NCBI GenBank assembly: GCA_965178125.1
Contig: OZ237776.1
Coordinates: forward strand, 496,001 to 537,789
From: Bilabrum cf. latius
Taxonomy: Eukaryota
Reading direction: 5' to 3'
Length of the DNA stretch: 41,789 nucleotides
The position numbers were made by a program, and so were the translations under genes. A model generated the notes under the pieces. It made no database searches and was not told where the DNA came from. It worked only from the letters and a program-made list of their open reading frames with translations. Shown piece by piece: positions 635 through 41,789 of this stretch (position 1 is its first letter; each line of letters opens with the position of its first letter).

Positions 635-3600
635 TCAACCCCGACCCGGGTCGTCGTCCCCCACACCCGAGGCGGGCTGCTCCTGGGCTGCCCCCGCATT
701 CGATCTACCTTCATCCATCCCCGCAGTTGCATCACCGCTCGCCAGTCGCTGCTCCCTTGCCCTGAGCGCCTCCTGGAACTGCGGGTTGGACTCCTCCATC
801 TGCAGGTAGGCTTGTCCCTGCACCACGGTCCAGTACCTGTACTCGGGCCGGTTCCTCTGCTCCCAGTCCATCTCGCCCTCGAGGGACCGGATGATGCGCG
901 CCTGCTCCAGCACCCACCTGTCCTCGGCCTGCTCCGCGATGTTCTGAAAGGTGTCGCTCATGCTGGCGATCAGAGTGTTGAGCAGCAGCACCGACATGAC
1001 CACCACATACCCCAGCAGGAGCCCCTGCGCCAGGGCACCCGTCACCACCCTCAGAGCGCCTGATACACTCCACACGCCCGCCCCTGCCCCCTCATCCCCA
1101 CCCACACCCGCATCTGCACCCCCTGCCAGCCAGTCCACTTCCTCATCAGCGCTCTCAGCCAGGTCATAGTCCTGCAGCACGATGCGGAAGGACTTGTACA
1201 GCCGCTGCATGAAGAGCCCTCCGCCACCCCCCAGCGCGGGGTCGTGCAGAGAGAAGGACGCCTGCGTATACCCCATGAGCAGGACCACCATGAGTACGCC
1301 GAAGCGGGCCACGTCCTTGCGCAGCATCTCATAGATTGCCACCACATAAGGCCCAGTTTCTGGAAAGCCAAGAACGAAAAACAACGTGCGGCCCCACGCG
1401 CCCAGCGCAGCACCAGTCAGTAGCAGCCGAAAGACGAGCCCAGCCAGCTCGGAATCGCCAAGCCATCCCCCGGCCACAGGCCCTGCATCTGCCCTGCACC
1501 ACGCCTCCTGCTCTTGCGACAAACCAGGGAACACACTTCCCGCCAACCAGCCCAGTGGCCGCCCCACATCCGAGCATACCACCGCCTGTGGCTGTCTCAG
1601 CACCGCCAGCACCGCCAGTGCCGCCACGCACGAGCTGAAGGTCAGTGCCGTGGTGTTCTCCACGAACCCAGCCCCCCTCACACTCAGGTACTCCCGGATG
1701 CCCTCCCTCGCCACCTCCATGCCCTCCACCATCAGCTTGGACAGAGCAAACGCAGTGACCCAGCCCTCCAGCAGCCCGGGGGCAACGCACGCCAGCCGGG
1801 CACGGAAATACGAATCTCCCACCAGCGTCAGCAGCACTGCGCTGGGCCCCGATCCATCGCTGGCACTCGGCGGATCCATCACTCGCAGGGCGCAGCTGTG
1901 CGTGTCCCGCAGCACCCAGGCGTGCTGTTCCCTGGCACCCACCGCCGAGGCCAGCACGATCCCCAGCACGAAGCACAGCAGCATCACTGCATGCTCCACG
2001 AACCGGCGCCCGAATACTTCCTGCGCGAACCGCTGCCACTTCTGCCGCAGCACCTCCCGCACCCTTGGCAGCCGCAGCATGTCCAGCCACTCCGCCTCGA
2101 TGATCAGATCCAGCGCGCTGCGGAACTCGATCCGGGGTGGGGGGCCCGAGTTACCACCGGGGGCGGGTTTCAAGCCTGTCGGTGTCGTTGGCTCCTCCGG
2201 CGCGCCACCAGGCGACGCTCCAACTGGACCGTTCGATTCATTCGATTTATTCGTTCCTCGGCTCGCTGCCGTGCTGCTGGCCCCAGACTCTTTGGATCCA
2301 AGCGGCGGACTGCCCGAATGCACTGCGTCCGCCCCTGCGTGCGGGAGCGCCTCCTGCCTCGCCCTGAGCACTAGCCTCGCCTCTCTCACCGCCCTCGCCT
2401 CCTCCTCGAACTGTTCCCTGGCCCTCCCCCGGTCCCCCTGCACCCCGTCCAGCTCTGCCAGGGGGTACAGCACGCACGATACAGGCCCGTAGGTCCAGAA
2501 TACCTGGCAGCTCGAGTCCAAGATGTGCTAGAACATGCGGCGCCGCCCGAGTCTGGCTGCCAGCTGCAGCGGAGTGAGTCCGGCTGCGCTCCTGACCCTC
2601 TCCAGAGGTGGGCGGCCCATGCGCCTGCCGGGGTCGTGCTCGTGCAGCTCCCTCCAGAGGTCACTCACGTAGTCGTACATGGCCGGCAGGTCGTGCACCA
2701 CGGCCATGTGCAGCGCGTGGTGGCCCATCACATCGGCCACGTACATGTCGCTAGAGGGGCACATGGCCAGCGCGCGCACCAGGGCGGGCTGGCAGGTGCT
2801 CACCTGCGGATGGGAAGGGGGCAGGGTGGTCAGGGGCATTGAAGGGCACCGGTAGCAGCTGTGACGAAGGAGCATGATTGCATACCATGCTACTATGTCC
2901 ATGCACCGGCAACTAAAGGCCGTACCAGCGTACAATTCGCAAGAGTACGGTGCACCACTGGCAGCACCGCGGCGAGACTCACAGCGAAAAGCAGCGGGAG
3001 CTCTCCGTAGTAGCAGCTCGTGTCTCTGTCAGCCGTGAAGCGCTGCCATGAAAAGAAGCTACCTATCGCTCTGTAATGCAGCAACCGAGGTGCTTGCTAC
3101 GCCAGCATTCGGACCCGCTACAAGTCACCGTTAACGACTGCGATGTGAAGAACGGTCTCCCCCTCGTACGCCGAGGGTCGACCATCGCCTGGTCCTACAT
3201 ATTGAGCCTCAACAAGCTTTGGAAACATGCCAACTAGCCAGTCAGCCAATTCGTAGTGCTTGTGCTCATGAAAAAGATAGCACAGGTGCAGAGCAGAAGC
3301 CCCGACAGCATCACGTTTTTTGTTGAAGAATTCCTCAGCATCGTCTCCTTGCTCGCTAGCAACAGCTTTTAACGCCTCGAGGTCCCCTTCTTTAACAATA
3401 TTCACGAGCGTCCCCTTCGTATGGGCGCTTGAAGCCTGAGCATCGTTGCGAAGCTTGGATTCCTGCATAAATGACACCGTGCGATGAAGCATCGGTGGAG
3501 CTTCTGCAGCAACTGTAGAAATTCCATCTGAACCAATCTACGTTTCCTTTGTAGCCATGCTGATTCGTGCTGCGTAGCAAGAACAGCTGTGATCAAAAGT

Positions 3601-3757
3601 CGAAAGATGAAGATCTAGTGATCGACTCACAGCAGAAGCTGCGGGCGAAGGGGCTGCACCTTTGGGCAGCGGCAGCGGCAGAGCGGGAGCCCGCGCCTCT
3701 TCTATCGGGCGCTTTCACGACGCCAGCTGTTGTCTATGGAAGCTGTGGTGGCATCAT
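635..3757 (-). CDS. TRPV-like ankyrin-repeat cation channel (spliced; in-frame TAG codons; 5' exon structure uncertain)
   Basis: Ankyrin motifs YEGETVLHIAVVN, YYGELPLLFA, GHHALHMAV, GLTPLQLAA; WTYGP motif; hydrophobic TM segments; S6 LLLNTLIASMSDTF and TRP-box-like WVLEQARII. GT-AG intron 2982..2804 (GCT|GTGAGT...CGCAG|GTG, phase 0) joins LPLLFA to VSTCQP. In-frame TAG at 3118-3120, 3097-3099, 2528-2530. Tentative first exon from ATG 3757/3754 with intron ~3630..3587; the link from there to the 3118..3492 frame is not resolved. Stop TGA 635-637. Confidence 0.8.
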
Positions 3758-4088: not shown

Positions 4089-4282
4089 AATCAGTATGCT
4101 TCAACTCAACCCACCAGGTCCCTTGCGGCCTTGCCACGGTCGCCCACCCCAACAATCAGTATGCTTCAACTCAACCCACCAGGTCCCTTGCGGCCTTGCC
4201 ACGGTCGCCCACCCCAACAATCAGTATGCTTCAACTCAACCCACCAGGTCCCTTGCGGCCTTGCCACGGTCACCCACCCCAA
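4089..4282. repeat. 65-bp tandem repeat, about 3 near-identical copies
   Basis: TCAGTATGCTTCAACTCAACCCACCAGG... recurs at 4091, 4156 and 4221. It overlaps the last codons and the TGA of the large minus-strand gene. Confidence 0.95.
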
Positions 4283-7200
4283 GCAGCAGGTCAAATACCA
4301 GCTCCGTCACCCCGCTATTCCGCAGCTTGTTGCACCGTAGGTCGCCGCCACCCCTCAAAGAAACCATGTCGTGCAGCTGCATCACTGCCGAAGTGGTAGC
4401 CACGTGCTGCCGCTCGCCCATCTCCCTCAGCTGCCAGATCCTGTTCTCGTACGAGCACTCCACGTCAAGCGGCCCCAGCACCCCGTCATCGTCCAGGTCC
4501 AGGACTCGGAACCAGTACTCCACGGATGTGTTCCCCATGCGGTCCTGCATTGCCTGCCGCAGCCACACGAAGTCCTCGAAGTTCAGGCACCCCGCCCTGC
4601 CGCTGGACAGAGTCCTCGCCCTGCCAGCAAACACCCGCTCCAGCGCATTGCTGCACACCGGCACGATCCGCTGCCCCGCGGGCAGAGAGCCGACAGTGCC
4701 CTCCTGGTCGTCTGCCCCGCCACCAGGTGGGTTGGAGGGACCGCCTCCCCCTCCATTGCCGCCTGCCCCGTGCAGAGGCAGCACCGGGCCCGGGCTGACC
4801 GCGTGCACAAGCTGCTGTAGAGTGAACGTGCCTCTGTTGGCCCGATCCACGGCCCTGTAGAGCGCCTCCACGTCCCTGAAGTATCGAACAGAGAAGGGCA
4901 ACACGTTGTCAGTTGTGGTGACGCTGCACATGAGGAAGGCATCCACCAGGTTGGACGAGCACAGCTCCTTCATCGTGACCCGAGAAGTGGTCAGCCCGTG
5001 CAGCGAGGCAAACAGAGACGCCAGCACGCAGGCCACGTACCTGGACCGGGCCACAGGGTCGCCCCGAATGCCGGACAGGTCGGGGTGCCTGTCCACGAGC
5101 GACTCAACCGCGGGTCTCAGATCGTCCATGTACACGTGGCTCCCGGCGGGGTGGTCGCACACCAGGCCCCCGGACCACACCACGTCATCCGCCCTGTCTC
5201 CTTGCCCCGGATCCTCCTCTGCACCAATGGGACTCCCCTGGCCAGAGTCAGAGCCAGAGTCAGCCCCGGCAGCCCACCGCGTCGCAGCGATCTCGCCCGA
5301 GGACTCGCGCCTGCGCCCGTGCTCGCTCTGTCTCCGCAATTCCAGCTCCGGATCCTGTAGGGGGGCAGAGTCTGGGTGCGGGGAAGGTGCCTCCAGCTCA
5401 AAGGCAGCTGGCAGCCGCGATTTGTCCCCGGGGGCAGGCAGGCCCGGGTACAGCTGGCCCCCGTTGCACCTCGCCGTCGAGGCCTCCACGAGCTCGTCCG
5501 CAGTAAGACCCAGCTGGCTCGTTTCTCCTCCGCCAGAAGAGCCATGTTCCCTCCGCCGCGAGCTCGAAGTCACGGACCCGCGCTTGTCTTTCCGGCCGCC
5601 CTCGCCCTTGTTCCGAACAGTCGTCCCGGCGGGAATCTGACCAGCTGCCACTAGCGTGCGGGTGACCGTGTCGGCGTTGTACACGTTCACAGGGGGCGGG
5701 ATCCACCCGTACGTCACCTGCGCGTCCACTTCGGGGAGGTTCCGCTCGCGGCGCCAGGCTTCCAGGTTCCGCACAGCCAGTCTAGAGGCGCCGCGCATGT
5801 GCCTTGCCTAGTTCCGCTTTGCCTCCCGTCCCAGCCGCATCCGCAGCAGATCCATCGGGCAAAACCCGTGTGCCGCCCCAAGAGAGGCCAGCTGGGCCGC
5901 TGCTGCCTCAGTTGGGTTGCGATACCGCTTGGACTGGAACGCCCGCCCACCGCTATCTTGCGCGGTTGGCGACAAAAGGCCCCCAGAGGTCGCGCGGGTG
6001 CCTCGGTCGTAGTCTGGGTCGTTCTCGTCTGCCAGTCCAATGACCATGTCACTCGTCACAGCGTCATCCGTGGTAGCCGACCGACCATCTCCTTTCCGCA
6101 AGCGGTCCATCTGGCCTACTTTTGCCCTGCCCTGTCCCCGTGCCTGATCCTGTCCCTGATCCAGGTAATCCACGGATGTCTCCAGCGAGCCATCTCCAAA
6201 GGACCCCTCGGCGCCATCCCCGTCCTCCTCCCCGGGCCCAAGATCTCCCGGCCCTGCGCTGCTGATGCTGCCGGAAGACGGCGACCGAGAGCTGTCTCCC
6301 CCACTGTCCCGGCTCTCCTTGCGCATGCTCGAGCGGCCCCGGACGGGGCTGGACTCGCCGGGCAGGGGCGTCTCCCCACCTGACGACTGCCTATCACCCA
6401 GCCCCCCAGGAGCCATGCTTGTCACTCGCAGGTGCACCTCCTTGAGACCAAGAGCGTCGGAGGCAGTTGAATTCCGCGCGTGGGGGACTTTGATCCCGAG
6501 CTTTGCGGCAACCGAAGAGCCGAGCACGCCCGCGGTCTCTTCCCCCGCTTCAGCGCAGCTGGGCAACACCGACACGGCCTTGCTGTCCCCATACATTTCG
6601 AGCAAGAGGGCCTTCAGCATCTCCCTCTGGCTGCTAGGCAGCTTCCGGATGCTGACCTTTGCCGACGAGTCGCCCTGTCCCTTGCCCTCCCCTGCAGAGC
6701 GAGACACAGCACCATGCTCCAGACCGCCTAGCAGCCAGTGCCCGATCGCATCAGATGCATGGGAAAAACTGGCCCCAGAGTCCAGCTGTGGCTATCCACC
6801 GATCCCAGCCACGAACAGCCCGCCTGACACTCTCGCAGACCCGCCTCCTGCAGCGCCCCGCGGTCCCCGGCACCAGTGCGCCAGGGACGGGTCCTGCACG
6901 CGCATCACCCCAGTCACTGCTCGAGGCCCGAACGCATCGGGTTCGAAGGCAGAGTCGATAGGACCCCGCTCTGTCGAAGGCCCGGCTGCTACAGACCGGA
7001 CGGGCTGCTGGCTTGGGCGCAAGACCACGGAGTCGTCCCAGTCCGAGGGTGGGTCAGCCTGCAGCACGCCGTCCAGAGACCTCCGCGCTAGGTCAAACGG
7101 GGTCCTTGGTGGCACCTCCCTGCTTCCTACTTGCGTCGGTGCAGGCACGGCCAGCAGTGCCCTGGGCACCACGCTGCTGCCTAGGCGCGACCGGGGGACG

Positions 7201-10200
7201 CTGTCATCCTCTCCACCCCCCTGCAACCGCGTGTCCTCGTGGTGGCCGTACACAGCCGATTGAATCTTCTGCTGCCGGCGCCGCGCAGGTACCCGGAGAG
7301 GCACCGGGACTAGCCCCGTCTCGCTAGTGCCGCCCCCAGCTGAGCCTGAGGCATCCAACCGGTCAGGCTTACGAGCCATCGCTGCAAGCTGCGCCGCATG
7401 CGAGTACACAGGAGGGCGCGTTCGAGGCTACAAGCGCCTCGGGGGGCATGGGTGACGCAGGAGCATCGTGACCCCGAGTCTGCGAGGCTCTTGCATCACG
7501 CCCGGGTGCCAGATCCTGAGGAACATCGCCATCGAGACCATGGGCCGGGGCCCGGGGGCCACCTCCCACGGCTCGGGGATCGCCCCGATCTGGGGACTCC
7601 AGCAACCAAAGTCCAGAGCAAATCCCCCGCTGGCATACCTAAACGCCCTGCGCCCGACGGTAGACCAGGCAAGGGGCCGTAGGGGATGCGACTGTGACAC
7701 GTGCCCTCTCTGCGTGGAAGACGACTGCCCCATCGCGTGCCTGCGGTCCTTGCACACTGGGCCCATGCCCAGCGGAACCACATCGGGCGCCGCGCCCACG
7801 ATTGCCGCCTGCAGGCGGGCCACAGAGGATGCCGATGAGTGTGACGAGTAAGAGTCTGTCGAGCCAGCGCTGTCCAAGCCACGACGCAGGCCGGCGATAT
7901 TCCGCAGAGCAGTGGCAGCGCGTTTCTCCCAGCGAATTGCCAGCCGCAGAGCCTCCTTGACGCCTGCTGCGGCCCTGCGCTTGTGTCCCGTGCTCATCGG
8001 AAGGGCAGGCACCTGGTCACCCATGCCAGGCGAGCTTGAGGAAGAAGTCTACTGCTTCCTGACAGCGTTGTGCGAGTCTCGGCTGGACCCCGGCCCGCCT
8101 ACTGGCCCTTCGTGTCGCTTGGAGGACGAGGTGGCACCGCCGCGTCCCATTGCGCCGGCAACTCCCTGCCCCAGCACGCCCTCTCTCGCCCGCCAGGTGT
8201 ACCAGTCCACGTCACGCTCCCGCAGCACTCCTCTCCGCAGGGCCTCGGAAACATACACTCGTTCCTGCTCCCACAGCCGCTGGTCCCGGCGCATGGCGCG
8301 GCGAGTACCACTACTGATCCTGGCTGCAGGCGCCTCCAGAGGCACCTCGTCCTCGCGCCTGGCGTCACCCACCCTGTACCCGAACTGCTTGCGCATGTCC
8401 TCGTCTTCCTTCTCCTCGCTCCTGCCGCTGGGTGCTCCTCGCCGACTACCACTCGCACCATTGCGGCGCATGCGATTCTGGGTCTTGGCTCGCAAGTCCC
8501 CACGCAGCTCGCGCAGTAGGGCTCGCAGACACCACGCGCGGCAGGCGCGGTGGTATGACGCGCGCGCAGGCCATATCCGCTGAGACTCGTATGCAACCGC
8601 GTGCTCCGCGAGGTGCATGAGCACTGGGGCCGCGTCCCTAAGCAAGGCAGCGACCAGGCGGGCGCATGAACGACCGCCAACCGGGCTATCACGACTACTC
8701 CCCACATCTGCGGCAGCTCTACACAGGATTTTGACGAAGATTTCCGCATACACTGCAGAGGCAGCTGCTTCTGCCGCGGCAGCCTGATGCGCATCTGCCC
8801 ATGCCTGATGGATCGCACGGAGGTGCAGCACAGGTCCAAAGTAGGCTGGCAGCCGGCAGTGGTCTCTCACCAGGTGCTTCCAGTTGCGGCCATCTGCTCG
8901 GCGCAGCTGTCCCTCAGACCTTAGAGCGTGGTTGGGGCGCCAGCTAGACAGCTGCAGGCCGCGCCAGTCCAGGCCTGCCAGCTGCATCGCCCGTAGCACA
9001 CCGCCTTGACCGCCGCCCAGCACTGGCGCGGCCCCAGCGCTGGCAACTTCCCTAGATGCGGCCCCGGCCCCACTCGTAGCATCAGAGGGTGCCATGAACT
9101 GAGAGGCAGCTGTGGTCACCGGACATGGCACGCTGTTGGATCCAGTGGCCATTCCATCCGGTGCCCCAGCCACAGCGCCGTCAACAGGCATGCCGAGCAC
9201 CGAGGTGCCGCTGGCTACCGCCTCAAATGCCGCGCCTCGTGCAGCAGCAGCCGCAGTGCTGGACAGCTGAGGGTACGGCGGCTGCGTCACCGACATGGGC
9301 GGTGCCGCCGTCCGGCACATGGAGCCCATGGTCCTCTCAATGCCGCTCTGCAGCCTGCGCTCGAAGGGAGGCCCATCCTTGGCCCCTGGCTTGCGGGCCG
9401 TGGCAGAGGTCCTCGAAAGGGACCGCCCCTCGGTGGCGTGCTCTGGTCCATCGCCCGCGTCTCGGCTCGATCCCACATCCAGACCAGTGGAAGAGTCACT
9501 CGGGTACACGTGTCCGTCCTGCGACACAGGCACCCTGCTGCGGGCCCCGAATACGGCCCTCGTGGTGGACGGCACCCGTTCTTTCCAGCGGAGGTACACG
9601 TCCATCGGCAAACGGGGATACAAGCACGCTCGAGCGGCCGCCAGCGCGGCCCGGTGTGCGGTCACCATGGCCAGCAGCAGGCAATGGGGCTAGGCCTCCA
9701 TGCCGGCCTAGCCCTCCCCATCGGCCCCCATCCCGCCCAAGCTCTAGCTTTTCATGTCAAGCCCGAACTGGCCGGGCCATGCGCCGCGCAGCAGCTCCGC
9801 GAGGGTGGCCATGGCAGGGAACACTAGAGCGGGGGCCTGGACCGCCCGCATGCTCTGCAGAGAGAAAGAAGCCGCGCCCAGAGCATCCGCAGGCTGCAGC
9901 CGACTGTGCTCCGGTGTTGTCCGCATCCAGGCGGGGGGGGCATCCCCAGTCGCCGTATTCCGCTCGAGGGCATCACGTGCGCCTGCCGCTGACGAGTCCG
10001 TGCCTCTGTGAGCCGAGCCACGCATGCGGCGCCGCGCATCTTTCAGAATCCATGCCTTCCGGAACCTGGACCCCGAGCCCCCATCATCCAGTCCCACGGG
10101 CGGCTACAAAGCATCGTCAGGGGACACCAGCCGCTTCTGCTGAAGGGTCAGTTCGCCCTTGTCTGCCTTGGCGATGCTCGCGCTCACTGGAGAGTCCTCG

Positions 10201-12617
10201 CGGCCTGGAGCATTCGGAGGATCTACGGCTCGGCTGCGCATGATCAGAGCGCATTCGTCACCCGCTACACGCGCGTCTACCCGCGCCAAGGCCTCGGCAG
10301 TCCCACAGAGATCGGCCCCACGCACCTTCCTGACCATCTGCTTCATGGTCGCATAGGCGGCCTGGCCTGCAGCTCTGGGATCTTCCTCCATTGCTACTAC
10401 AGCCTTGCTTGCCTTGCTCGTCTTGCCTGCTGCGCTAACCTCGCTGCTGCCCTGAATGTCGTCCTCACTGTCGTGCTTGCCCTCGCCGTCCCCCACGCTC
10501 TCCTCCGCTGCCTCCTTGCCCTGCAACCCCACCGCTACCTCCCGCCTCGCCGCCAGCGTGCCCTTTACCGCCCTGACCCTCAGCTCACCAGAGCGCCGCG
10601 CCAGCCCCGATAGCAGGTCCATCACCAGCGGCCAGTGAGTCGCAAAGGCGCACACAATCGCCTCCCCATCAGCGGGCAAAGCCCCGATCATGCTCTGGTA
10701 GGCCTCCCGGTCACCGGCGGGTGCCTGCCTCATCCGTTGTGCGTTGGCCCCCCGCCTGCTCTGCACCACCCCTGCGACCACGGCTGGCCTGGCGCTGGGC
10801 AGGGTGGGGTGCGGCACGTGGTGTAGCATGGGGCACGGAGGCGGGCGCAGCTCCGATCGGATGTCGCGCGAGGCATCTTTTACCCAGGCCGTGCCCTGTG
10901 TCAGTGACGCCTGCACCCAGGCAGCAATCGATTCTGGATCCGTCGGCATCGGAGTCTCGTCCGCATCCCCGCGCTGGGCCTTGCGCCTGACTTGCGCTGC
11001 AGCTGGCGCTGCCACACTGGAGGAGGCAGAGGCGGTCAGGTCCTGCCCGTCAGCACCAGCCCCTGCAGTCGATGTGTGCCGTGAGGCTCGCGGGGAGGAC
11101 TGGGCCGTGCTCTCGTGGTCTGCAAGAGAGCGGGGCATGCGAGCAGGGGACCGGACGGTCAAACTCTGCGCAAAGTGCCCGCTTGCACCCATGGAATTAA
11201 CGCCAGATGCGTCCCCGACAGCTCTCGCTGCAGCCCTGCGAACCCGATCCATCTCTCCTACAGAATCCGGGTCGGAAGGACCGGTGGCATGCGGGCGTTG
11301 GTGCCGCGTGGGCCCAGGGGGTAGACCTTCCAACGAGCTGGGGCCGGTGCTTGGCTCTCTAGCCGGCGGCGCGCCGATGCTGCCCTTGATCGCAGGGCCC
11401 CGCACCAGCCCGCCAAGACTTGCTGCTGCCCTGTCTCTGTCCGGACCTTCCTCCTCACCCTCCTCCTCTCCAATGACTTCGTCCACATCGGACCCATCCC
11501 TCTCTTGGCTAGCTCCTATCGTGGCATCCGCGCCATCCCCAGATACTGCCGCAGAAGCAGCTGCGGCCAGAGGTGGAGACAGGGGCGGGGACTCTCCTCT
11601 CCACGACCTCCGCCTGCTCTCCGCTTTGGACAGAGAGGCGCGCGTGGGGAAGTAGTCCTCCGGGGGAGCGGGCAAGCCCAGGCCGACTCCTGTAGAGCGG
11701 GCGGCCTGCGGGCTGGGAGGGGCGCCACTGGGGCTGCTCGGTCCAGATGTGATTGCACTCGTCACACTTTCCTTGCTATCGAGCCAGGCCAGCGCCTCCT
11801 CGTCGGCACTCACCTCTGAAGGTCCATAACTCTAGCCAGGAGTAGTGGGGGACTCATCACCAGTGCCCGGGGGCGTGCCGTTCCCGCTGCTGCTACCCTC
11901 TGTGGCGCGCGGACTTTGCGACCGGGGCGAAGAACCGCTCCCGCTTCCACTCCCGCTTCCCGTGCCCTCCGCCTGCCTCAGCTCTGAGCCTCCCCGGGAC
12001 ATGGAGCTGGGACTCAGCCCAGGGAGAACCCTGTCCCCGGTACTTGCAGCCCGCTGCAGCGCACGGGCGCGAGCACGGGCGTTGGCTCCCGCGCGCCCTC
12101 TACCCACATAGCCCGCACCCCTGGCCCCCTGCCCCCTCTGAGCACCCGAGGCCCCCGCCGCGGAGGGGAACATGCCCGCCATGCCTGCCTGGGTCCGAGG
12201 CATGGCGGGGCGGCCACCGAGGGCCATCGCGCTCACCGATGCACTCGTCATACTACCACCGCTACGGGCCTGATTGGACTCAGGGGTTGCCGCTGGGTCC
12301 GCACTCCGGTGCCCCTGCCCCCGCGCAGCATCACCCGCAGCACCTGTCACCCCGGTGGACCCCAGGCTGCGGGGCCGCATGGACGGGGAGGGGGTGTGCG
12401 GCTTGGTGGGCTGGAACACCGCGTCCCGTGCATATGCAGCCGCGGCTGCATGTGCCGTGGCCTCTTCCACGGAGGATCTGCTCGAGTGCCTCGTGCCGTC
12501 GGACCTGCTGCTTCGCACCGATGAGGCACGCGAGCCTGCACCGGGGTCGGTTCGGCTGGCACGGGCAGATGAGCTGTCTGAACCGTCCGACTCCGCTCTG
12601 CTGTTCTAATTCTCCAT
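4236..12617 (-). CDS. Very large (~2,793 aa if unspliced) protein with C-terminal PP2A regulatory subunit B'' (PR72/PPP2R3-like) EF-hand region; 10 in-frame TAG codons
   Basis: ORFs 11832..12518, 10104..11813, 9744..10097, 8049..9668, 7428..8024, 6792..7409, 5808..6707 and 4236..5798 share one frame. I read the gaps codon by codon and the only stops are TAG (12606, 11832, 10104, 9744, 9708, 9690, 8049, 7428, 6792, 5808). Start ACA-ATG-G at 12617 (MEN*NSRAESDGSDSSS). C-terminal part resembles B'' motifs: DDLRPAVESLVDRHPDL, NFEDFVWL, TSVEYWFRVLDLDDDGVL. Stop TGA 4236-4238. Confidence 0.75.
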
Positions 12618-13989
12618 TGTTCGCGACAGTCTGGCCCCTGCAGCCCGCAACACGCCGCCTAGTCGGTCCTATTCGTCCCTTGCTGCCATTTGGTCCGCAA
12701 GTCTCTGACGGGTCCACCAGTCACCCAATGACAAGACTGTTCACCACAGAGTGTGAACGTCTCCGCTGCACTCAAATGTCTTTCTGGTGTAACACGCGTA
12801 CCTGCGTCAAAACTGAGAGCGAAGGGGGGCCAGAGAAAAGATCACAGTCAGTAGTCTCGCCGTCCAGGTCGACAAATCCCCGGTGTCAATGCAGACTTTC
12901 ACTTGCCGACTAACAATTCACAATTGTTTTAAATACACTCAGTCCTTGATGCTTCGAAATGCTCTCCAGATCAGCGGGACGATCGCATGATTCCAGCACC
13001 CACACAGCTGTTGCATCACTACACCCTATCCAGGCCTTGCAATCCCTACAGGGACTCAATTGATATTAAACCAGCTGATGCAAATCACAGGATTGTATGG
13101 AATTGATGGTGGGCGGTGATTCCACTGGTAGACTGTGAACACACCATGCACCAAGATCTCCAAAACAAGCCGCCAGAACACAAGCGCCGACGGCCCGGCA
13201 TGTAGGGTCTCTGCCTACTAGTTGCCAGATCACGCTCAAGTAGCTGGCAAGATCAACCCGACATAAAAACCATTTGCCAATCGTCAATCCCACCAGCATT
13301 CTAGCCCGGCCCTCACGGCCAAATTAGCATGAAAGACCGAATTCTCCGGTCAGCAGTGAACAATCGAGCACATTAACTCCGAGAAAGCAAACCCAATGGG
13401 ACTTTTCTCACGTATTTCTTCTCCAGCCGCAACTACAAGGCTAGCGTGTGTCGCGATACAGGCTTTCAATCAGTACTGGTCGGGTACAGCGCGTGAGTAC
13501 CGCTTAGTGGTCTGGAAAAATGCAATTGCTCCGACGATACAGATTACCCGAATCTCAGCCGCCTCCGCTCTCTCGGACAGGTGCTGATAGCTCACAAGGT
13601 ATTTGGAACAGTGTCCATTGCAACGGAACCAACAGAAGAAGCCGCGCAAAAGTTGGTCGCAAAGGAGCGTGCCAGAAATTCGTTGGAGCTGAGCGCCATG
13701 CCTCAGCCAGCTGCAAACGGGTGAAATGTCGAGAGTTTGACTACTCGATGGACCGTATGAGGGCCGGGCCCGAAAAGCTTGATTCCATGTTGAACGAATG
13801 GTGATAGTCCACCCTCATATAATATCGATAGTTGTTTGCCGTTTGCCCTGTCGGGAGAATCCAAGCTGAGACACCGGACGGCCGTGGAAGCGAAGGGTGC
13901 ACCCTCCCGGTGTTCAACTGCAACGACTAATTTCAAACCAGGACATGATGCAGCCCCGCATGCAGATAATAGTGCCCAGCAGTCTCCAT

Positions 13990-16228
13990 TCATTCCTCAG
14001 GCTTGGATTCACCGGCATCCGCAGCCTTCCCGGCATCATCGGCTGCCTTGCGCAGAGTCTGTACCTCAGCCTCCAACGCCTCCTTGGCGGCTCGAAGGGC
14101 CGCCGTCTCTGCTGCAAGTTTTCCCTTCAGCTCGTCGTTCTCTGCCTTGAGGCGCGCGATCTCTGCCTGCGCCGCCTTCAGCGCGTCATCCCCTCCAGCG
14201 CCCGCCCCGCTGGCTGCCCCCGCCGCGGGATCCGCCGCCTTGGCAGCCTTGGCCTGCTCTCGCTCCGCGGCGGCCTTTTTGGCGGACTCGTCCACCACGA
14301 ATCCGGAGCTGCTGCCGGCTCCCGCTCCGCCGGTGGCAGCCCCCGCGCCCGCTCCCTCAGCGGGCTTCATGGAGGCCCGCTTTGGCTTGGCGTCCTTCCC
14401 GCCGAACCACTGGTCCGCAGTGAGGGCAGGGGCTGCCGACACGCAGTCGGGGTACAGATCCGACTGGAAGGACTCGCTCTTGCGAGGCACCTGGAAGGAG
14501 ATGCTGCGGACCTTCTTGTTCTCCAGCTTGATGAAGCGGGCGATCTCGGTCTTGCCCACGTCCACGGCGCGGCGAGGCACCTGGGCGATCCCCTTGGCCG
14601 CGTCTCCCATCGACATGCGGGCGATCTCGTAGGGCTTGGACTTGGGGATTTCCCAGTACCGGATGGAGGCGTCTCCCTTGGCTGCCACGTACAGGATGCA
14701 CGAGGCTTCGTCGTAGAAAGGCATCATCACACCCGCGGCCGAGTCCAGCTCCTGGTGGATGACGGGCGCGTCCAGACCCTTGCCCAGGTCCCACACCTTG
14801 AACTCGCGGCCCGACATGCGGGTGAACCCGGTGGTCACGAAGCGGTTCTTGCCGTCCATCCAGCACATGTTCACGGTCTTGGCACCCTCGTGCGCCGTGA
14901 AGGTCTGCTGGGCCTTCTTGGCGTCAGCCCTCGGGTCCCAGAGCCGGATCTTCTTGTCCTTGCTCGAGGTCAGCAGCAGCTTGCCGTCCTCGCTCCAGCA
15001 CAAGTTGGCGATGGGCTTGCTGTGACCAGTGATCGTGACTGCGTCAGTCAGCTTGGCCACGTCCCACAGCCGCACGGTGTTGTCTCTGGATGTGGATGCC
15101 AGCGTCTGGTTGGCGCAGGGGTGCCACTTGAGCAGCATCGTGTCCTTGTCGTGGCCCTTGAGCACCGCCGAGGGCTCCTCGATGTTCTCCTGCACGCCAC
15201 CCTCGGGGATGCTCCACACCATCACCGTAGCGTCCCTAGAGGTCGATGCCAGCAAGGAGTCGTTGTGTGGTGAAAAGGCCGTGTCCTGCACCTGCGCGCG
15301 GTGGCCCGTCAGCATGGGCACGTCGGGGCGCACCTTGCCGCTGCCGTCCACCGGCTGCACCAAAATCTTGCCGCCGCCGCCACGAGCCGCCACTGCCCAG
15401 TACAGTGCGCTTGCGCTGATCATGTACTGGTCGCCTGCGAATGTTGAACTATCCGAGGGCAGCAAGACGACGTGAACGTGCTGAGTGCATTCGTACGGAC
15501 GGAGCACGTGATACGATTGGCTCACCGGTACCGGAGGCCAGCTGAATATCAAGATATGAGGATTCATCTTTGGACTCGGTTCCAAAAACGTGCCTGCGAT
15601 GGTGTATTTGTTGATGAAGGGGTTGAAGGTCAAATCTTGCTGCTGCTGCTACTGCAAACTCTCGTTGATAGCCAACTACAAAGCAGCATCCAACCAAGCA
15701 TTCCAAGAGCACGGTACAGAGCTTAATATGCACTTATGCTGTGCACGCACATAAACAGGGAAGCTTCCTTTGCATATTCAGGTGTTCTTGGGCACTGAAC
15801 GGTACAGGGACGAGCTACGGATGAACACAAGCATGCCTTGCTTTAGGCCCGAGGTTTGCCATCCGTCAATCCTGAAAGTATTATAATGCTGGAACACTGG
15901 GAATTCCAGATTTGCTTCACGCTCTACATACACTAAAACAAATGCAAGCCACAACGTGGGCGATCCTGACGCATTCCATGTTGAAGCTGTCACATCAAGC
16001 AACACGTGCGGCACAAATTCAGTCAGAGCACAAATATGTATCTATGCAAATGGCATGCCTTGCCATTGGCACATTTGCAGGCGACATATCCACAACTAGC
16101 CCTGAGTCCAGATTTCGCCAAGCGAGCCAAAAACCGCAGATTATCATGCCCTTGCCACGAATGTAATCAGAACTTGCGGTCAAATATTCTCACCTGTAGC
16201 TACTCTACCTAACGAATCGGGAGGACAT
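13990..16228 (-). CDS. Coronin (WD40 actin-binding protein with C-terminal coiled coil), 3 exons, 515 aa, in-frame TAG at codon 8
   Basis: Exons 16228..16194, 15593..15526, 15434..13990 with GT-AG junctions and matching phases (total 1548 nt). N-terminus MSSRFVR*SSYRHVFG matches the coronin signature (VRQSKFRHVFG). WD repeats, KGDASIRYWEI, VPRKSESFQSDLYPD, coiled-coil tail. Stop TGA. Confidence 0.92.
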
Positions 16229-16747
16229 GCCTCAACGAGCTATCAAGTCGGACTAAGCAGTACAAAACGATTCTGCTCAGTCACGCAATTCCTTGCCTCA
16301 AATGCAGAATCTGTGAAGTAGCGTGCACTCTGCAACTCAGGGCGGCCAGGGCGGCACACGCAGCGAGGCGCCAGCTGGCGCCCCAGGCCCTTTCATGTCG
16401 CATTGGGGCATCACCGACTGGTTCTACTAGTCATGACAGTCGCTTCGACTACGCGAGATCCACAGGTGCACTGAGTGAGCAAGTGCGGAGTGGGCTTTTC
16501 TAAACGATACAAATCACAGGCATATCGCGGTGGAATATTCGATGGACAAGAAGCTAGTAGCACGCACATAGCACCAGCACTTGGCCGGTGGCACAACACC
16601 GCAGCCCGTGGCCGCCTTGCCTCCCGTGGTAAGGCCGTGCCCACACCGTGCTGTGGTTCAACCTTGTTGCGCCGTGTGCGCCTGCATGCATGTCAAAACA
16701 GTTCTTTCCTACGGCTTAGCACCGTCTCGGTCCCTAGATCGGATCGA

Positions 16748-17546
16748 TCACTCGTAGATCTGGGTCTCGATGCACGACGTGTACTCGGCGCAGCCCTCGG
16801 GGAACCACAGGCCGATCTCCTTGACGGCATCCTCGGGCACAGCGCTGGCGTGCACGGTGTTGCGGCCGATGTCCACGCAGAAGTCGCCGCGGATGGTGCC
16901 GGGCGTGGCGTCAGCGGGGTTGGTGGCGCCCACCAGCGAGCGGCCAGCCTTGATGGCTCCGAGGCCCTCCCACACCATGGCGAACACGGGGCCGGAGGTC
17001 ACGTACTCCACCAGAGAGGGGAAGAACCTGCAAGTAACGAACGTGTTGAGCGTGTGGCAAAGATAACTCGCGCCTGATGCACATCGTTAAGCACAACATC
17101 ATTTCGCGTGACAATCCTGAAATCAGCTCACTTCTTCTCGGTCAACTCAGAGTAATGCTCGGATAGGAGTTCCTTAGTGGCAGTGGTCATCTTCGCGGCG
17201 ACCAGCTTAAGTCCCTTCTGCGAAACAAAGAAGAGAAAGCCTGTCGGTACTGCAAGGGTGCCTAGCTGTTCATTTGCAGCTATGATGCACATAGAATCGG
17301 CAGTAAATCAGCCCTAAAAATACAATTTCGTAGCGCACACAATTTAATAGAACAGTTTGCAGCTAATGTTGACATCCAAGTTTTCATTGCTGCAGATCGA
17401 AGCCCCGACTAGCTCGAACAACAGGTGTTGCATGAACTCACCCGCTCGAAGCGGCCGATGATCTCGCCGACAAGACCACGCTGCACACCATCGGGCTTGA
17501 TCATCACATAAGTACGCTCCTTCTTGGCATCAGCAGCGGCGGCCAT
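16748..17546 (-). CDS. NDK: Nucleoside diphosphate kinase, 3 exons, 156 aa
   Basis: Exons 17546..17442 ([26 protein letters not shown]), 17217..17132 and 17027..16748 ([27 protein letters not shown]), GT-AG introns, total 471 nt. Stop TGA. Confidence 0.95.
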
Positions 17547-17691
17547 CTTTCACTAGTTGTCCTTAAGATGCGTTGGGGAGGGCCGATGCCGCAGCCAACT
17601 CCAAGGTTCGCTGGGGTTCTCTCCGAACTAAGCACATCTAAACGCGGCGCAACGAAGACTTCAAAAAGCATTCAAGCAATATAAAACGTCG

Positions 17692-18113
17692 CCCACACAC
17701 CTTCGACCCATGCAGCCATCCGCGGCCCTCGCCGCACATCTCGACACACCCTCGCCTTACCCTAACCCTAACCTATGCAGCCATCCGCGACCCTCGCCAC
17801 ACATCGGCCGCACACCCTCGCCCCTTGCAGCCATCCGCGGCCCTCGCCACACATCGGCCGCACATCCTCGACCCATGCAGCCATCCGCGGCCCTCGCCAC
17901 ACATCGGCCGCACACCCTCGCCCCTTGCAGCCATCCGCGGCCCTCGCCACACATCGGCCGCACACCCTCGCCCCTTGCAGCCATCCGCGGCCCTCGCCAC
18001 ACATCGGCCGCACACCCTCGCCCCATGCAGCCATCCGCGGCCCTCGCCACACATCGGCCGCACACTCTCGCCCCTTGCAGCCATCCGCGACCCTCGCCAC
18101 ACATCGGCCGCAC
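17692..18113. repeat. Subtelomeric 50-bp C-rich minisatellite (~8 copies)
   Basis: TGCAGCCATCC anchors at 17711, 17777, 17827, 17877, 17927, 17977, 18027, 18077. Runs directly into TTAGGG. Confidence 0.95.
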
Positions 18114-39582: not shown

Positions 39583-39779
39583 GGTTAGGGTTAGGGTTAG
39601 GGTTAGGGTTAGGGTTAGGGTTAGGGTTAGGGTTAGGGTTAGGGTTAGGGTTAGGGTTAGGGTTAGCGCAGGTGTGGGGGGCAACTGTCGGGATTTGGAT
39701 ATTTGAAAAAGCAAAGAGGGGTGCCGTTGCGTTTTTCTGGCCTGTGCCGGGCTTGGTGGGCAGGGTGCGAGGGCGCAAT

Positions 39780-39786
39780 GAGGAGG
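39780..39786 (+). promoter_or_regulatory. Shine-Dalgarno sequence
   Basis: GAGGAGG 5 nt upstream of ATG 39792. Confidence 0.8.
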
Positions 39787-39791
39787 GGACG

Positions 39792-40562
39792 ATGGAACGG
39801 GTTGTGGTCGAGATCGAGGCGGGGGTCGCGCAAGTGCGCCTGAACCGTCCTGACAAGAAGAACGCGGTGGATATTGCCATGGCCGAAGCGATTGTCGCGG
39901 CGGGGCAGGGCCTGCGCGACGCGGATATTCGCGCGGTGGTGCTGTCGGGGGCAGGGGGCGCGTTTTGTGCGGGCCTCGATGTGATGAGTTTCGCGCAACT
40001 GGCCCAACCGGACATGCTGGCGCGGTTCATGGCGCGCAGCCATGACGACTGTAATCTGATGCAAGAGGTCGCGATGATCTGGCAGCGGCTCGACGTGCCG
40101 GTGATCGCGGCCTTGCAGGGGGTGGCCTATGGCGCCGGGTTTCAGATGGCGCTGGGCGCGGATATTCGGATCGCGGCCCCGGACACGAAGCTGGCGATCA
40201 TGGAGATGAAATGGGGGCTGATCCCCGATATGGGCGGGATGGTGTTGCTGCCACGCCTGACGCGGTCGGACGTTATTCGGCGCATGACCTATACCGCGCG
40301 GCCCATTGATGGGGAGCAGGCCGAACGCTGGGGGCTGGTAACGGAGCTTGCCGAAGATTCGGTTGCGGCGGCCACGCAGATGGCGGCAGAGATCGCTGGC
40401 AAAGGGCCGAACGCGATCAAGGCCGCCAAGCGCCTGATCGGACTGGCCGAGACGGCGGGGCGCGCGGAGGTATTGCTGGCTGAGAGCGCCGAGCAAAAGG
40501 CCCTGATCGGGCAGGCCGAGCAGATGGGCATCATCGCGGCCAATATGGCGCGCGGGGGCTGA
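39792..40562 (+). CDS. Bacterial enoyl-CoA hydratase/isomerase (crotonase family), 256 aa
   Basis: LNRPDKKNA, AFCAGLD, PVIAALQGVAYGAG, MEMKWGLIPDMGG motifs; SD-supported start; no introns. Confidence 0.92.
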   Translation: MERVVVEIEAGVAQVRLNRPDKKNAVDIAMAEAIVAAGQGLRDADIRAVVLSGAGGAFCAGLDVMSFAQLAQPDMLARFMARSHDDCNLMQEVAMIWQRLDVPVIAALQGVAYGAGFQMALGADIRIAAPDTKLAIMEMKWGLIPDMGGMVLLPRLTRSDVIRRMTYTARPIDGEQAERWGLVTELAEDSVAAATQMAAEIAGKGPNAIKAAKRLIGLAETAGRAEVLLAESAEQKALIGQAEQMGIIAANMARGG

Positions 40563-40573
40563 GAGAACAGACA

Positions 40574-40608
40574 AAAGCCCCCCAACGTGCTGCCAAGTGG
40601 GGGGCTTT
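40574..40608. terminator. Probable bidirectional rho-independent terminator
   Basis: Perfect 11-bp inverted repeat AAAGCCCCCCA / TGGGGGGCTTT with a 13-nt loop between two convergent bacterial genes. Confidence 0.75.
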
Positions 40609-40691
40609 CAAAAGAGCTTGATCGCGCGTGTCACGATCCGCGCCGAAAGGAAGATGCCTCCGGCGGGGATATTTAGGAAAGCAAAGAGCGG

Positions 40692-41789
40692 CTAGCCGAT
40701 CTCGGCCAAGCGGGCGAGGGCGGCTTTGAGTTTGGCCTCCTCGGCCTCTTTCTGGGCCAGCAGCTCGCGGTTCTCGGCCACGACCTCATCCGGCGCGCTC
40801 GCGACGAATTTGGGGTTGTTGAGACGGCCCCTGAGGCCCCCTAGGTCCTTGGCGAGCTTGCCCATGGCCTTTTCCAGCCGCGCCTTTTCCTCGTCTACGT
40901 CGATCAGATCGGCGAGCGGCAAGCAGAAGGTGGCGCCCTCGACTGCGATGGTGACGCTGCCTTTGGGCAGGGTGTCCACCGGGGTCAGGCTTTCGATGCG
41001 CGCGAGGCGTTTGATCATCGTCTCGTTGTTGGTCCAGGCGGTTTGGCCGGCCTCGCTCAGCTCAAGGCACTGCATATGGACCTTGAGGCCCACAGGCACG
41101 TGCATTTCTCCGCGTGCGGAGCGGACGTTTTCGATCAGGCTGATCACCCAGTTCATCTCGCGGCTCGCGGCCTCGTCGGTCAGATCGGCGGCGGCATATG
41201 TCGGCCAATCGCCATGCACGAGCATTTTCTGGCGGCTCGCAAGGGTGCCCCAAAGCTCTTCGGTGATGAACGGCATAAACGGATGCGCCATCAGCAAGCA
41301 CTGGTCGAGCACCCATGCCATGGTCTGGCGCGTTTCCTCTTTTTGCGCGTCGGTGCCGTCGAGCAGCAGGGGCTTCGACAGCTCCACATACCAATCGCAG
41401 ACCGTGCCCCACACGAAGCTGTAAAGCGCGCTGGCGGCGTCGTTGAAGCGGTAGGCGTGGAGCGCCTCGTCGATGACCTCGCGCGTTTTCGCGGTCTCGC
41501 CGATGATCCAGCGGTTGACCGTCTCGGTGCAGGCGTCGGGCTTGGTGGTCGCGCCCTCATAGGCACCGTTCATTTCGGCAAACCGGCAGGCGTTCCACAG
41601 CTTCGTGCCGAAGTTGCGATAGCCTGCGATGCGGTCTTTGCTGAGCTTGAGAACCCCGCCGATGGAGGCCATGGAGGCGTTGGTAAACCGCAGCGCATCG
41701 GCCCCGTATTCGTCAACGATCTCAAGCGGGTCGATGACGTTGCCGGTGGTCTTGGACATTTTCTTGCCCTTCTCGTCGCGCACGAGCTG
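40692..41789 (-). CDS. valS: Valyl-tRNA synthetase, C-terminal part (5' truncated by window)
   Basis: KMSKT (KMSKS-type) motif, [38 protein letters not shown]-terminal coiled coil with [11 protein letters not shown]. Ends at TAG 40692-40694. Confidence 0.96.

Follow-up and report, generated by a model that had tools for sequence, protein, structure and literature searches.

The coronin gene of the window (that is, the whole stretch of 41,789 nucleotides that was analysed) carries a TAG triplet in frame as its eighth codon. The locus therefore raises two questions: whether the short piece of DNA that holds this triplet is a genuine first coding exon and, if so, what TAG means in it. The preliminary description had proposed that the piece is spliced to the remainder of the gene and that TAG stands for Gln, on the ground that it coincides with the Gln of an N-terminal coronin signature. 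The features of the gene are the following.

16228..16194, minus strand: coronin exon 1, 35 nt (direct reading, profile match, start of the near-identical protein P0123)
16207..16205, minus strand: in-frame TAG, codon 8 of coronin (direct reading, homologue alignment)
16208..16203, minus strand: GTAGAG, an alternative in-frame donor whose GT uses the T of the TAG; five codons are lost by its use
16193..16189, minus strand: GTGAG, donor of coronin intron 1, a sequence common to all five modelled introns
15593..15526, minus strand: coronin exon 2, 68 nt, with a GTGAG donor (profile positions 10-35, 16.4 bits)
15434..13990, minus strand: coronin exon 3, coding the WD40 propeller and PF16300 and ending with a TGA stop at 13992..13990

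Exon 1 is composed of the ATG (16228..16226, minus strand), six codons, the TAG, three codons and the first two bases of a split codon. Its 3' end reads ...TAC AG at position 16194 and is followed by GTGAG. A TGA is found in frame at 16234..16232, two codons upstream of the ATG, so that opening of the frame further upstream would need another exon. Intron 1 (16193..15594, minus strand; 600 nt, 47% GC) ends with the acceptor AG at 15595..15594, and exon 2 opens with a G at 15593. Intron 2 (15525..15435, minus strand) is of the type GTGAG...CGCAG. The exon joins are in frame and generate a spliced sequence of 1548 nt (516 codons). Apart from the TAG at codon 8 and the TGA at its end, this sequence has no stop-type codon in frame. 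The exon 3 translation matches WD40 (90.8 bits) and PF16300 (66.7 bits), and a search with it yielded 153 matches at E <= 0.001 with coronins on top. The C-terminal 60 residues of the product look heptad-like by eye. The window protein shares with the coronin family PF08953 with its basic signature, the WD40 propeller and PF16300. It differs in that its nearest distinct homologues are only 43-47% identical, in its long branch in the tree, and in having a Ser in the signature where most homologues have Lys.

The amino terminus was delimited with a profile made from 36 coronins, which are the motif-filtered set with an N-terminus from the 59 coronin matches P0004-P0062. Three frames of 15300..17700 were searched with TAG written as X. 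Among the 55 pieces, exon 3 ranks first (profile positions 29-79, 39.4 bits), exon 2 is next (16.4 bits) and the exon-1 piece is third (profile positions 1-11, 6.9 bits, E 0.026). The matches of exons 1, 2 and 3 are colinear and abutting.

A near-identical protein, P0123 (515 aa, coded by a 1602-nt contig), was found in the 90% cluster of the top match P0003. It starts with MSSRFVRQSSYRHVFG. Its alignment to the spliced window product is gapless, with 510 of 514 comparable residues identical (99%); the differences are at residues 118, 397, 398 and 501, to which residue 8 is added (Gln in P0123, TAG in the window). The length and junctions of P0123 are exactly those predicted for the spliced coronin, and the protein holds a complete PF08953 (residues 4-68, 55.7 bits for a cut-off of 20.7, profile positions 1-66). 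The preliminary description had asked for junction evidence, which is in effect given by the contig behind P0123: it has neither intron, and represents a slightly different strain or allele. By direct reading, profile and P0123, the coronin exon, both splice junctions and every coordinate originally put forward are right, and 16228..16194 is the true first coding exon of the coronin gene.

The coronin TAG is not an isolated case, and TAG is read as an amino acid in genes of the window. Four gene models were built, all on the minus strand, coding the coronin, a TRPV-like channel, a long protein and a nucleoside diphosphate kinase. The three further genes are as follows.

3558..635, minus strand: TRPV-like channel gene, with exons 3558..2983 and 2803..635, an intron at 2982..2804 and a TGA end
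3540..3538, 3120..3118, 3099..3097 and 2530..2528, minus strand: the four in-frame TAGs of the TRPV-like gene
12689..4236, minus strand: long gene, 2818 codons when counted from the first ATG, with EF-hand_13 close to the C-terminal end and a terminal TGA
12671, 12608, 11834, 10106, 9746, 9710, 9692, 8051, 7430, 6794 and 5810 (first base of each), minus strand: the eleven TAGs of the long gene
17546..16748, minus strand: nucleoside diphosphate kinase gene, with exons 17546..17442, 17217..17132 and 17027..16748 and a TGA end

The four gene models comprise 4406 codons, among which TAG occurs 16 times, TAA is absent and TGA is found four times, each time as the terminal codon. Three of the four models bear TAG, which accounts for 16 of the 168 Gln-type codons in the four models. 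All four eukaryotic gene models end in TGA, a sample of only four terminators. TAA occurs neither in frame nor as one of these terminators; were TAA:TAG to follow CAA:CAG, some 1.9 sense TAA should be present, and the probability of finding none in 4406 codons is P(0) = 0.15. The five modelled introns, which all begin with GTGAG, carry TAG, TAA and TGA triplets alike. The long gene holds 11 of the 16 in-frame TAGs and no in-frame TAA. Its frame (12740..4236, minus strand; 2835 codons) has a single TGA, the terminator, against 42 and 46 TGA in the two alternative frames of this DNA. The reading of TAG as a sense codon that had been proposed earlier is thus borne out by 16 in-frame TAGs in three genes from which in-frame TGA and TAA are excluded.

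The long gene product is largely of low complexity, rich in Ala, Gly, Ser and Arg, and EF-hand_13 is its only Pfam match. A search with its C-terminal part detected three distant homologues, none of them near-identical and none covering its TAG; the nearest, P0129, shows 35% identity across 235 aligned columns of this part. As no homologue extends over a TAG of this gene, its 11 TAGs are uninformative on the amino acid. A 65-bp tandem repeat in three 99% identical copies (4089..4282) spans the stop region of the gene and its 3' flank. The nucleoside diphosphate kinase gene, which shares the strand of the coronin gene and lies 520 nt upstream of its start, is free of in-frame TAG and has a GC3 of 0.83. 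The absence of TAG from this gene fits TAG avoidance in highly expressed genes.

The coronin TAG might nevertheless escape translation if the upstream donor AG|GTAGAG were used, in which case it would be spliced out and the protein would be made without five N-terminal residues. This donor had been named in the preliminary description and is indeed present and in frame. Its product is a continuous reading frame of 1533 nt with no internal stop and, if codon 8 of P0123 is CAA or CAG, its C replaces the T that forms the GT, so that P0123 is compatible with such splicing. All five modelled introns begin with GTGAG, however, from which GTAGAG is different at intron positions 3, 4 and 5, and a donor of the consensus type lies 15 nt downstream of it. 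The five residues that would be lost belong to the signature and are kept in 35 of the 36 homologues. Splicing of this kind also leaves unexplained the other 15 in-frame TAGs, which are in two other genes, and removal of the TAG is needless in a genome that translates TAG. Use of the upstream donor is thus considered most improbable.

The TAG could also mark a null allele, a pseudogene or a base error (CAG to TAG), or the protein could start at the exon-3 Met with exons 1 and 2 untranslated. In favour of these explanations, the near-identical P0123 has Gln at codon 8, and P0003, a gene call of the same cluster, does start at the exon-3 Met. The latter start is, however, forced for a caller that reads TAG as a stop or that meets introns, and exons 1 and 2 encode the front of the PF08953 domain that is complete in P0123. 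The remainder of the coronin gene is intact. The 15 additional in-frame TAGs are found in two other TAG-bearing genes whose frames have no TAA and no TGA before the terminator, and a nonsense allele or base error cannot explain 16 TAG sites in three genes. This set of explanations is hardly credible.

With TAG read as sense, the coronin signature was the first place to look for the amino acid it specifies. In the N-terminal signature, the residue that aligns with the TAG is variable and is flanked by the conserved V-R and S-K/S. The corresponding column holds A 11, S 11, Q 7, P 3, N 2, E 1 and M 1 in the 36 homologues, and A 10, S 3, E 1, M 1 and Q 0 in the 15 homologues of the same sequence type. 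In the profile, Q has 0.09 at this column, compared to 0.12 for A, 0.11 for S and 0.092 for E. The claim that the signature identifies the residue as Gln fails on this variability and on the absence of Q from the 15 homologues of the nearest type. Furthermore, P0004, the closest distinct coronin homologue, has Ala at the TAG position, and with a residue other than Gln in a close homologue the argument from the signature falls. Gln is retained as the best-supported meaning of this TAG, while the reasoning that had first led to it is not: the coronin site is a good clue to the residue by virtue of P0123 and of the TRPV-like evidence, not of the signature. Note that P0005, a 44% identical coronin homologue from a 2267-nt contig, has its ORF Met aligned exactly to the window TAG (16205..16207) and has no residues upstream of that position.

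The codons of P0123 and of the other relatives were deduced from the way gene callers operate, starting from protein records rather than nucleotides. When run with -p meta, Prodigal is limited to tables 11 and 4, and either table has TAG as a stop. The Logan proteins are Prodigal 2.6.3 -p meta calls, restricted to complete ORFs, according to section 3.13 of PMC12424806. Residue 8 of P0123 should consequently be encoded by a standard Gln codon, CAA or CAG. A C/T difference at codon 8 is needed under any meaning of TAG, so that P0123 alone favours Gln only moderately. Taken by itself, it shows no more than that the codon-8 change was tolerated or silent.

The TRPV-like gene provides a second set of relatives. 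Its product has ankyrin repeats and an ion-transport domain, and in the PDB it matches the insect Inactive/Nanchung channels and TRPV3 best; the PDB alignments have Arg or Lys at the TRPV-like TAG site and are uninformative. A probable intron in the 5' untranslated region (3571..3631, GTGAGT...ACGCAG), identified by eye only, ends 12 nt before the ATG. A word-index search with the TRPV-like protein gave no matches, candidates having probably been swamped by low-complexity words. An exhaustive representative search was also carried out; of the 150 matches listed, 126 cover the TAG at 2530..2528. Their residues in this column are Q 22, E 19, S 18, D 15, A 13 and others. The closest homologue among the matches listed, P0222 (61% identical), has Gln at this TAG, and the second and third closest among them, P0171 and P0243 (~50% identical), have Glu.

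The ends of the relatives' ORFs are informative in their own right. In public gene calls, the relatives' copies of the TRPV-like gene are seen only in pieces of 80-180 aa, which would be expected of relatives that share a code in which TAG is sense. P0222, P0158, P0150 and P0235 report one common longest contig of 7707 nt, from which we infer that they are pieces of the gene of a single relative, split by a caller using the standard code. P0150 (84% identical) and P0235 (82%) are homologous up to their last residue, and their ORFs stop opposite CAG codons of the window, at 1174..1172 and 859..857, respectively. P0282, P0283 and P0284 (66% identical; 8129- and 4723-nt contigs) stop opposite the window CAG at 802..800. 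The exception is P0276 (59% identical), which stops opposite the Tyr codon TAC at 1198..1196, in a conserved L-Y-K motif. Three of the four ORF ends are therefore on window Gln codons (chance 2.4e-4, with 36 Gln codons in 913) and none on GAG, in a count whose 55% identity cut was chosen after the table was seen. Nine ORF ends of lower identity, which were not counted, fall opposite varied residues (Q in one of nine), mostly near the natural C-terminus.

The main competitor for the meaning of a sense TAG is Glu, with Ala, Asp or Ser less likely. A profile-emission test with a flat prior was applied to four TAG sites, namely the coronin site, the TRPV-like site at 2530..2528 and the ankyrin sites at 3120..3118 and 3099..3097, and gave E 0.65, A 0.14, D 0.085, S 0.046, K 0.031 and Q 0.025. 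The preference for Glu is driven by the two ankyrin-repeat sites, whose columns are acidic (E 36, D 19 and Q 3 of 102; E 21, D 17 and Q 4 of 103). The Glu residues of P0171 and P0243 at the TRPV-like TAG point in the same direction, and codes that assign UAG to Glu exist, Glu being among the code changes in a figure legend of PMC11687900. The four columns are, however, variable surface positions where Gln often replaces Glu, and two of them share one ankyrin repeat. At the coronin site P0123 has Gln and not Glu, the nearest TRPV-like homologue among the matches listed, P0222, likewise has Gln rather than Glu, and the relatives' ORFs that end on window CAG (three of four) have no counterpart ending on GAG. 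Evidence from near relatives is considered to weigh more heavily than columns of distant homologues on the meaning of TAG, and Glu or one of the lesser candidates is an unlikely assignment. UAG as Leu is strongly disfavoured over the same four columns (log-likelihood -15.8, compared to -7.2 for Glu and -10.4 for Gln), and the near relatives have neither Leu nor Ser at the TAG sites.

Gln is the best-supported meaning of TAG and, as judged from these sequence comparisons, very probably the correct one. The complete reading, in which UAG codes an amino acid that is most probably Gln, the genes of the window end with UGA and the coronin exon 1 is a true exon, is held with high confidence. By analogy with other organisms that have such codes, UAG would be decoded by a tRNA-Gln with anticodon CUA, and the release factor eRF1 would have lost recognition of UAG. 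A tRNA scan of the whole window found no tRNA genes, an Rfam scan of the whole window gave no matches, and eRF1 is not among the genes of the window.

The gene-bearing part of the window is followed by the segment 17776..39666, which has a 50-bp repeat (6.8 copies), then (TTAGGG)199, then about ten blocks of 91-127 TTAGGG units that alternate with arrays of a 155-bp satellite. The period of this alternation is about 1.85-2.05 kb, and the GC skew of the segment is about +0.4. Either an unusual telomere-satellite array at the end of a chromosome or an artefact of assembly could account for it. The final segment, 39665..41789, is bacterial: over 2127 nt it shows 99.8% identity to a contig of a Dinoroseobacter sp. 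MAG (L001), and it includes the C-terminal 365 codons of valS with a genuine TAG stop. This TAG, the only one in the window that terminates a gene, was considered as evidence that TAG is a stop and rejected in view of its bacterial origin. As the bacterial sequence begins immediately where the last TTAGGG block ends, the record looks like a chimeric join of eukaryotic and culture-associated bacterial sequence.

The position of the organism was approached with a coronin tree of 56 rows (P0123 and those of P0004-P0059 that reach 370 aa, which left out the shorter P0055; P0060-P0062 were not part of the input). P0123 is on a long branch within a well-supported clade, apart from fungi plus animals, and this clade adjoins another whose one named member is the ochrophyte Mallomonas. 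An aphelid origin, as for Amoeboaphelidium, is disfavoured by this separation from the fungi-plus-animals clade. The high GC content and the TTAGGG arrays of the window are taken here to argue against a ciliate. No described GC-rich lineage matching the code was found in the main texts searched, among which subscription papers are thinly represented. It is conceivable, as a tentative proposal on the doubtful side, that the window comes from an undescribed GC-rich lineage, neither ciliate nor opisthokont, in which UAG is Gln and UGA ends genes, and several of whose environmental relatives have their genes likewise broken at Gln by standard callers. If true, this would be a new independent origin of the UAG-Gln code, in a genome subject to GC pressure and not to AT pressure.

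Only a modest number of eukaryotic lineages are known to deviate from the standard nuclear code, and the capture of stop codons is mostly treated as a matter of AT-rich genomes. A code with sense UAG in a genome of about 60-67% GC is a useful test case for such capture and, if UAA is still a stop, it also addresses the question of whether UAG and UAA have to be reassigned jointly. Annotation with the standard code would truncate or split three of the four window genes and miss the coronin start altogether. Codon 8 of coronin offers a compact site for a direct test, as one tryptic peptide tells Gln from Glu.

The kind of code, with UAG or UAR assigned to Gln, is already known, and the window can be set against its representatives. 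Amoebophrya sp. ex K. veneficum was considered as a match and rejected: its genome is AT-rich and it reads all three stops, according to PMC12005148. UAG is assigned to Leu in the rhizarian exLh and in ciliate MAGs, and to Ser in Scotinosphaera (PMC5304391 and PMC11687900). As in the window, UAG is the only codon shown to be reassigned in these lineages, but in the window Leu is strongly disfavoured and neither of the two residues is found in near relatives at the TAG sites. UAR is assigned to Gln (NCBI table 6) in many ciliates, Ulvophyceae, Hexamita, Streblomastix and Amoeboaphelidium, as listed in PMC11687900. The window shares with this code TAG as Gln and TGA as the sole terminator seen (four of four), but has no in-frame TAA in its 4406 codons. 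A code with UAG alone assigned to Gln, and with UAA and UGA as stops, is described in PMC5304391 and PMC11687900 for Iotanema spirale, Protocruzia tuzeti and some phyllopharyngean ciliates. These systems and the window have in common in-frame UAG in conserved genes, Gln as the best-supported meaning and UGA as terminator. UAG is a minor Gln codon in both, with 16 of 168 in the window and a reported share of about 8% in I. spirale. The window differs from the Iotanema-type code in that TAA is absent not only from its 4406 codons but also from its four terminators (P(0) = 0.15 for the codons), and from the lineages that use this code in that its gene-bearing part has 57-67% GC and is followed by TTAGGG arrays.
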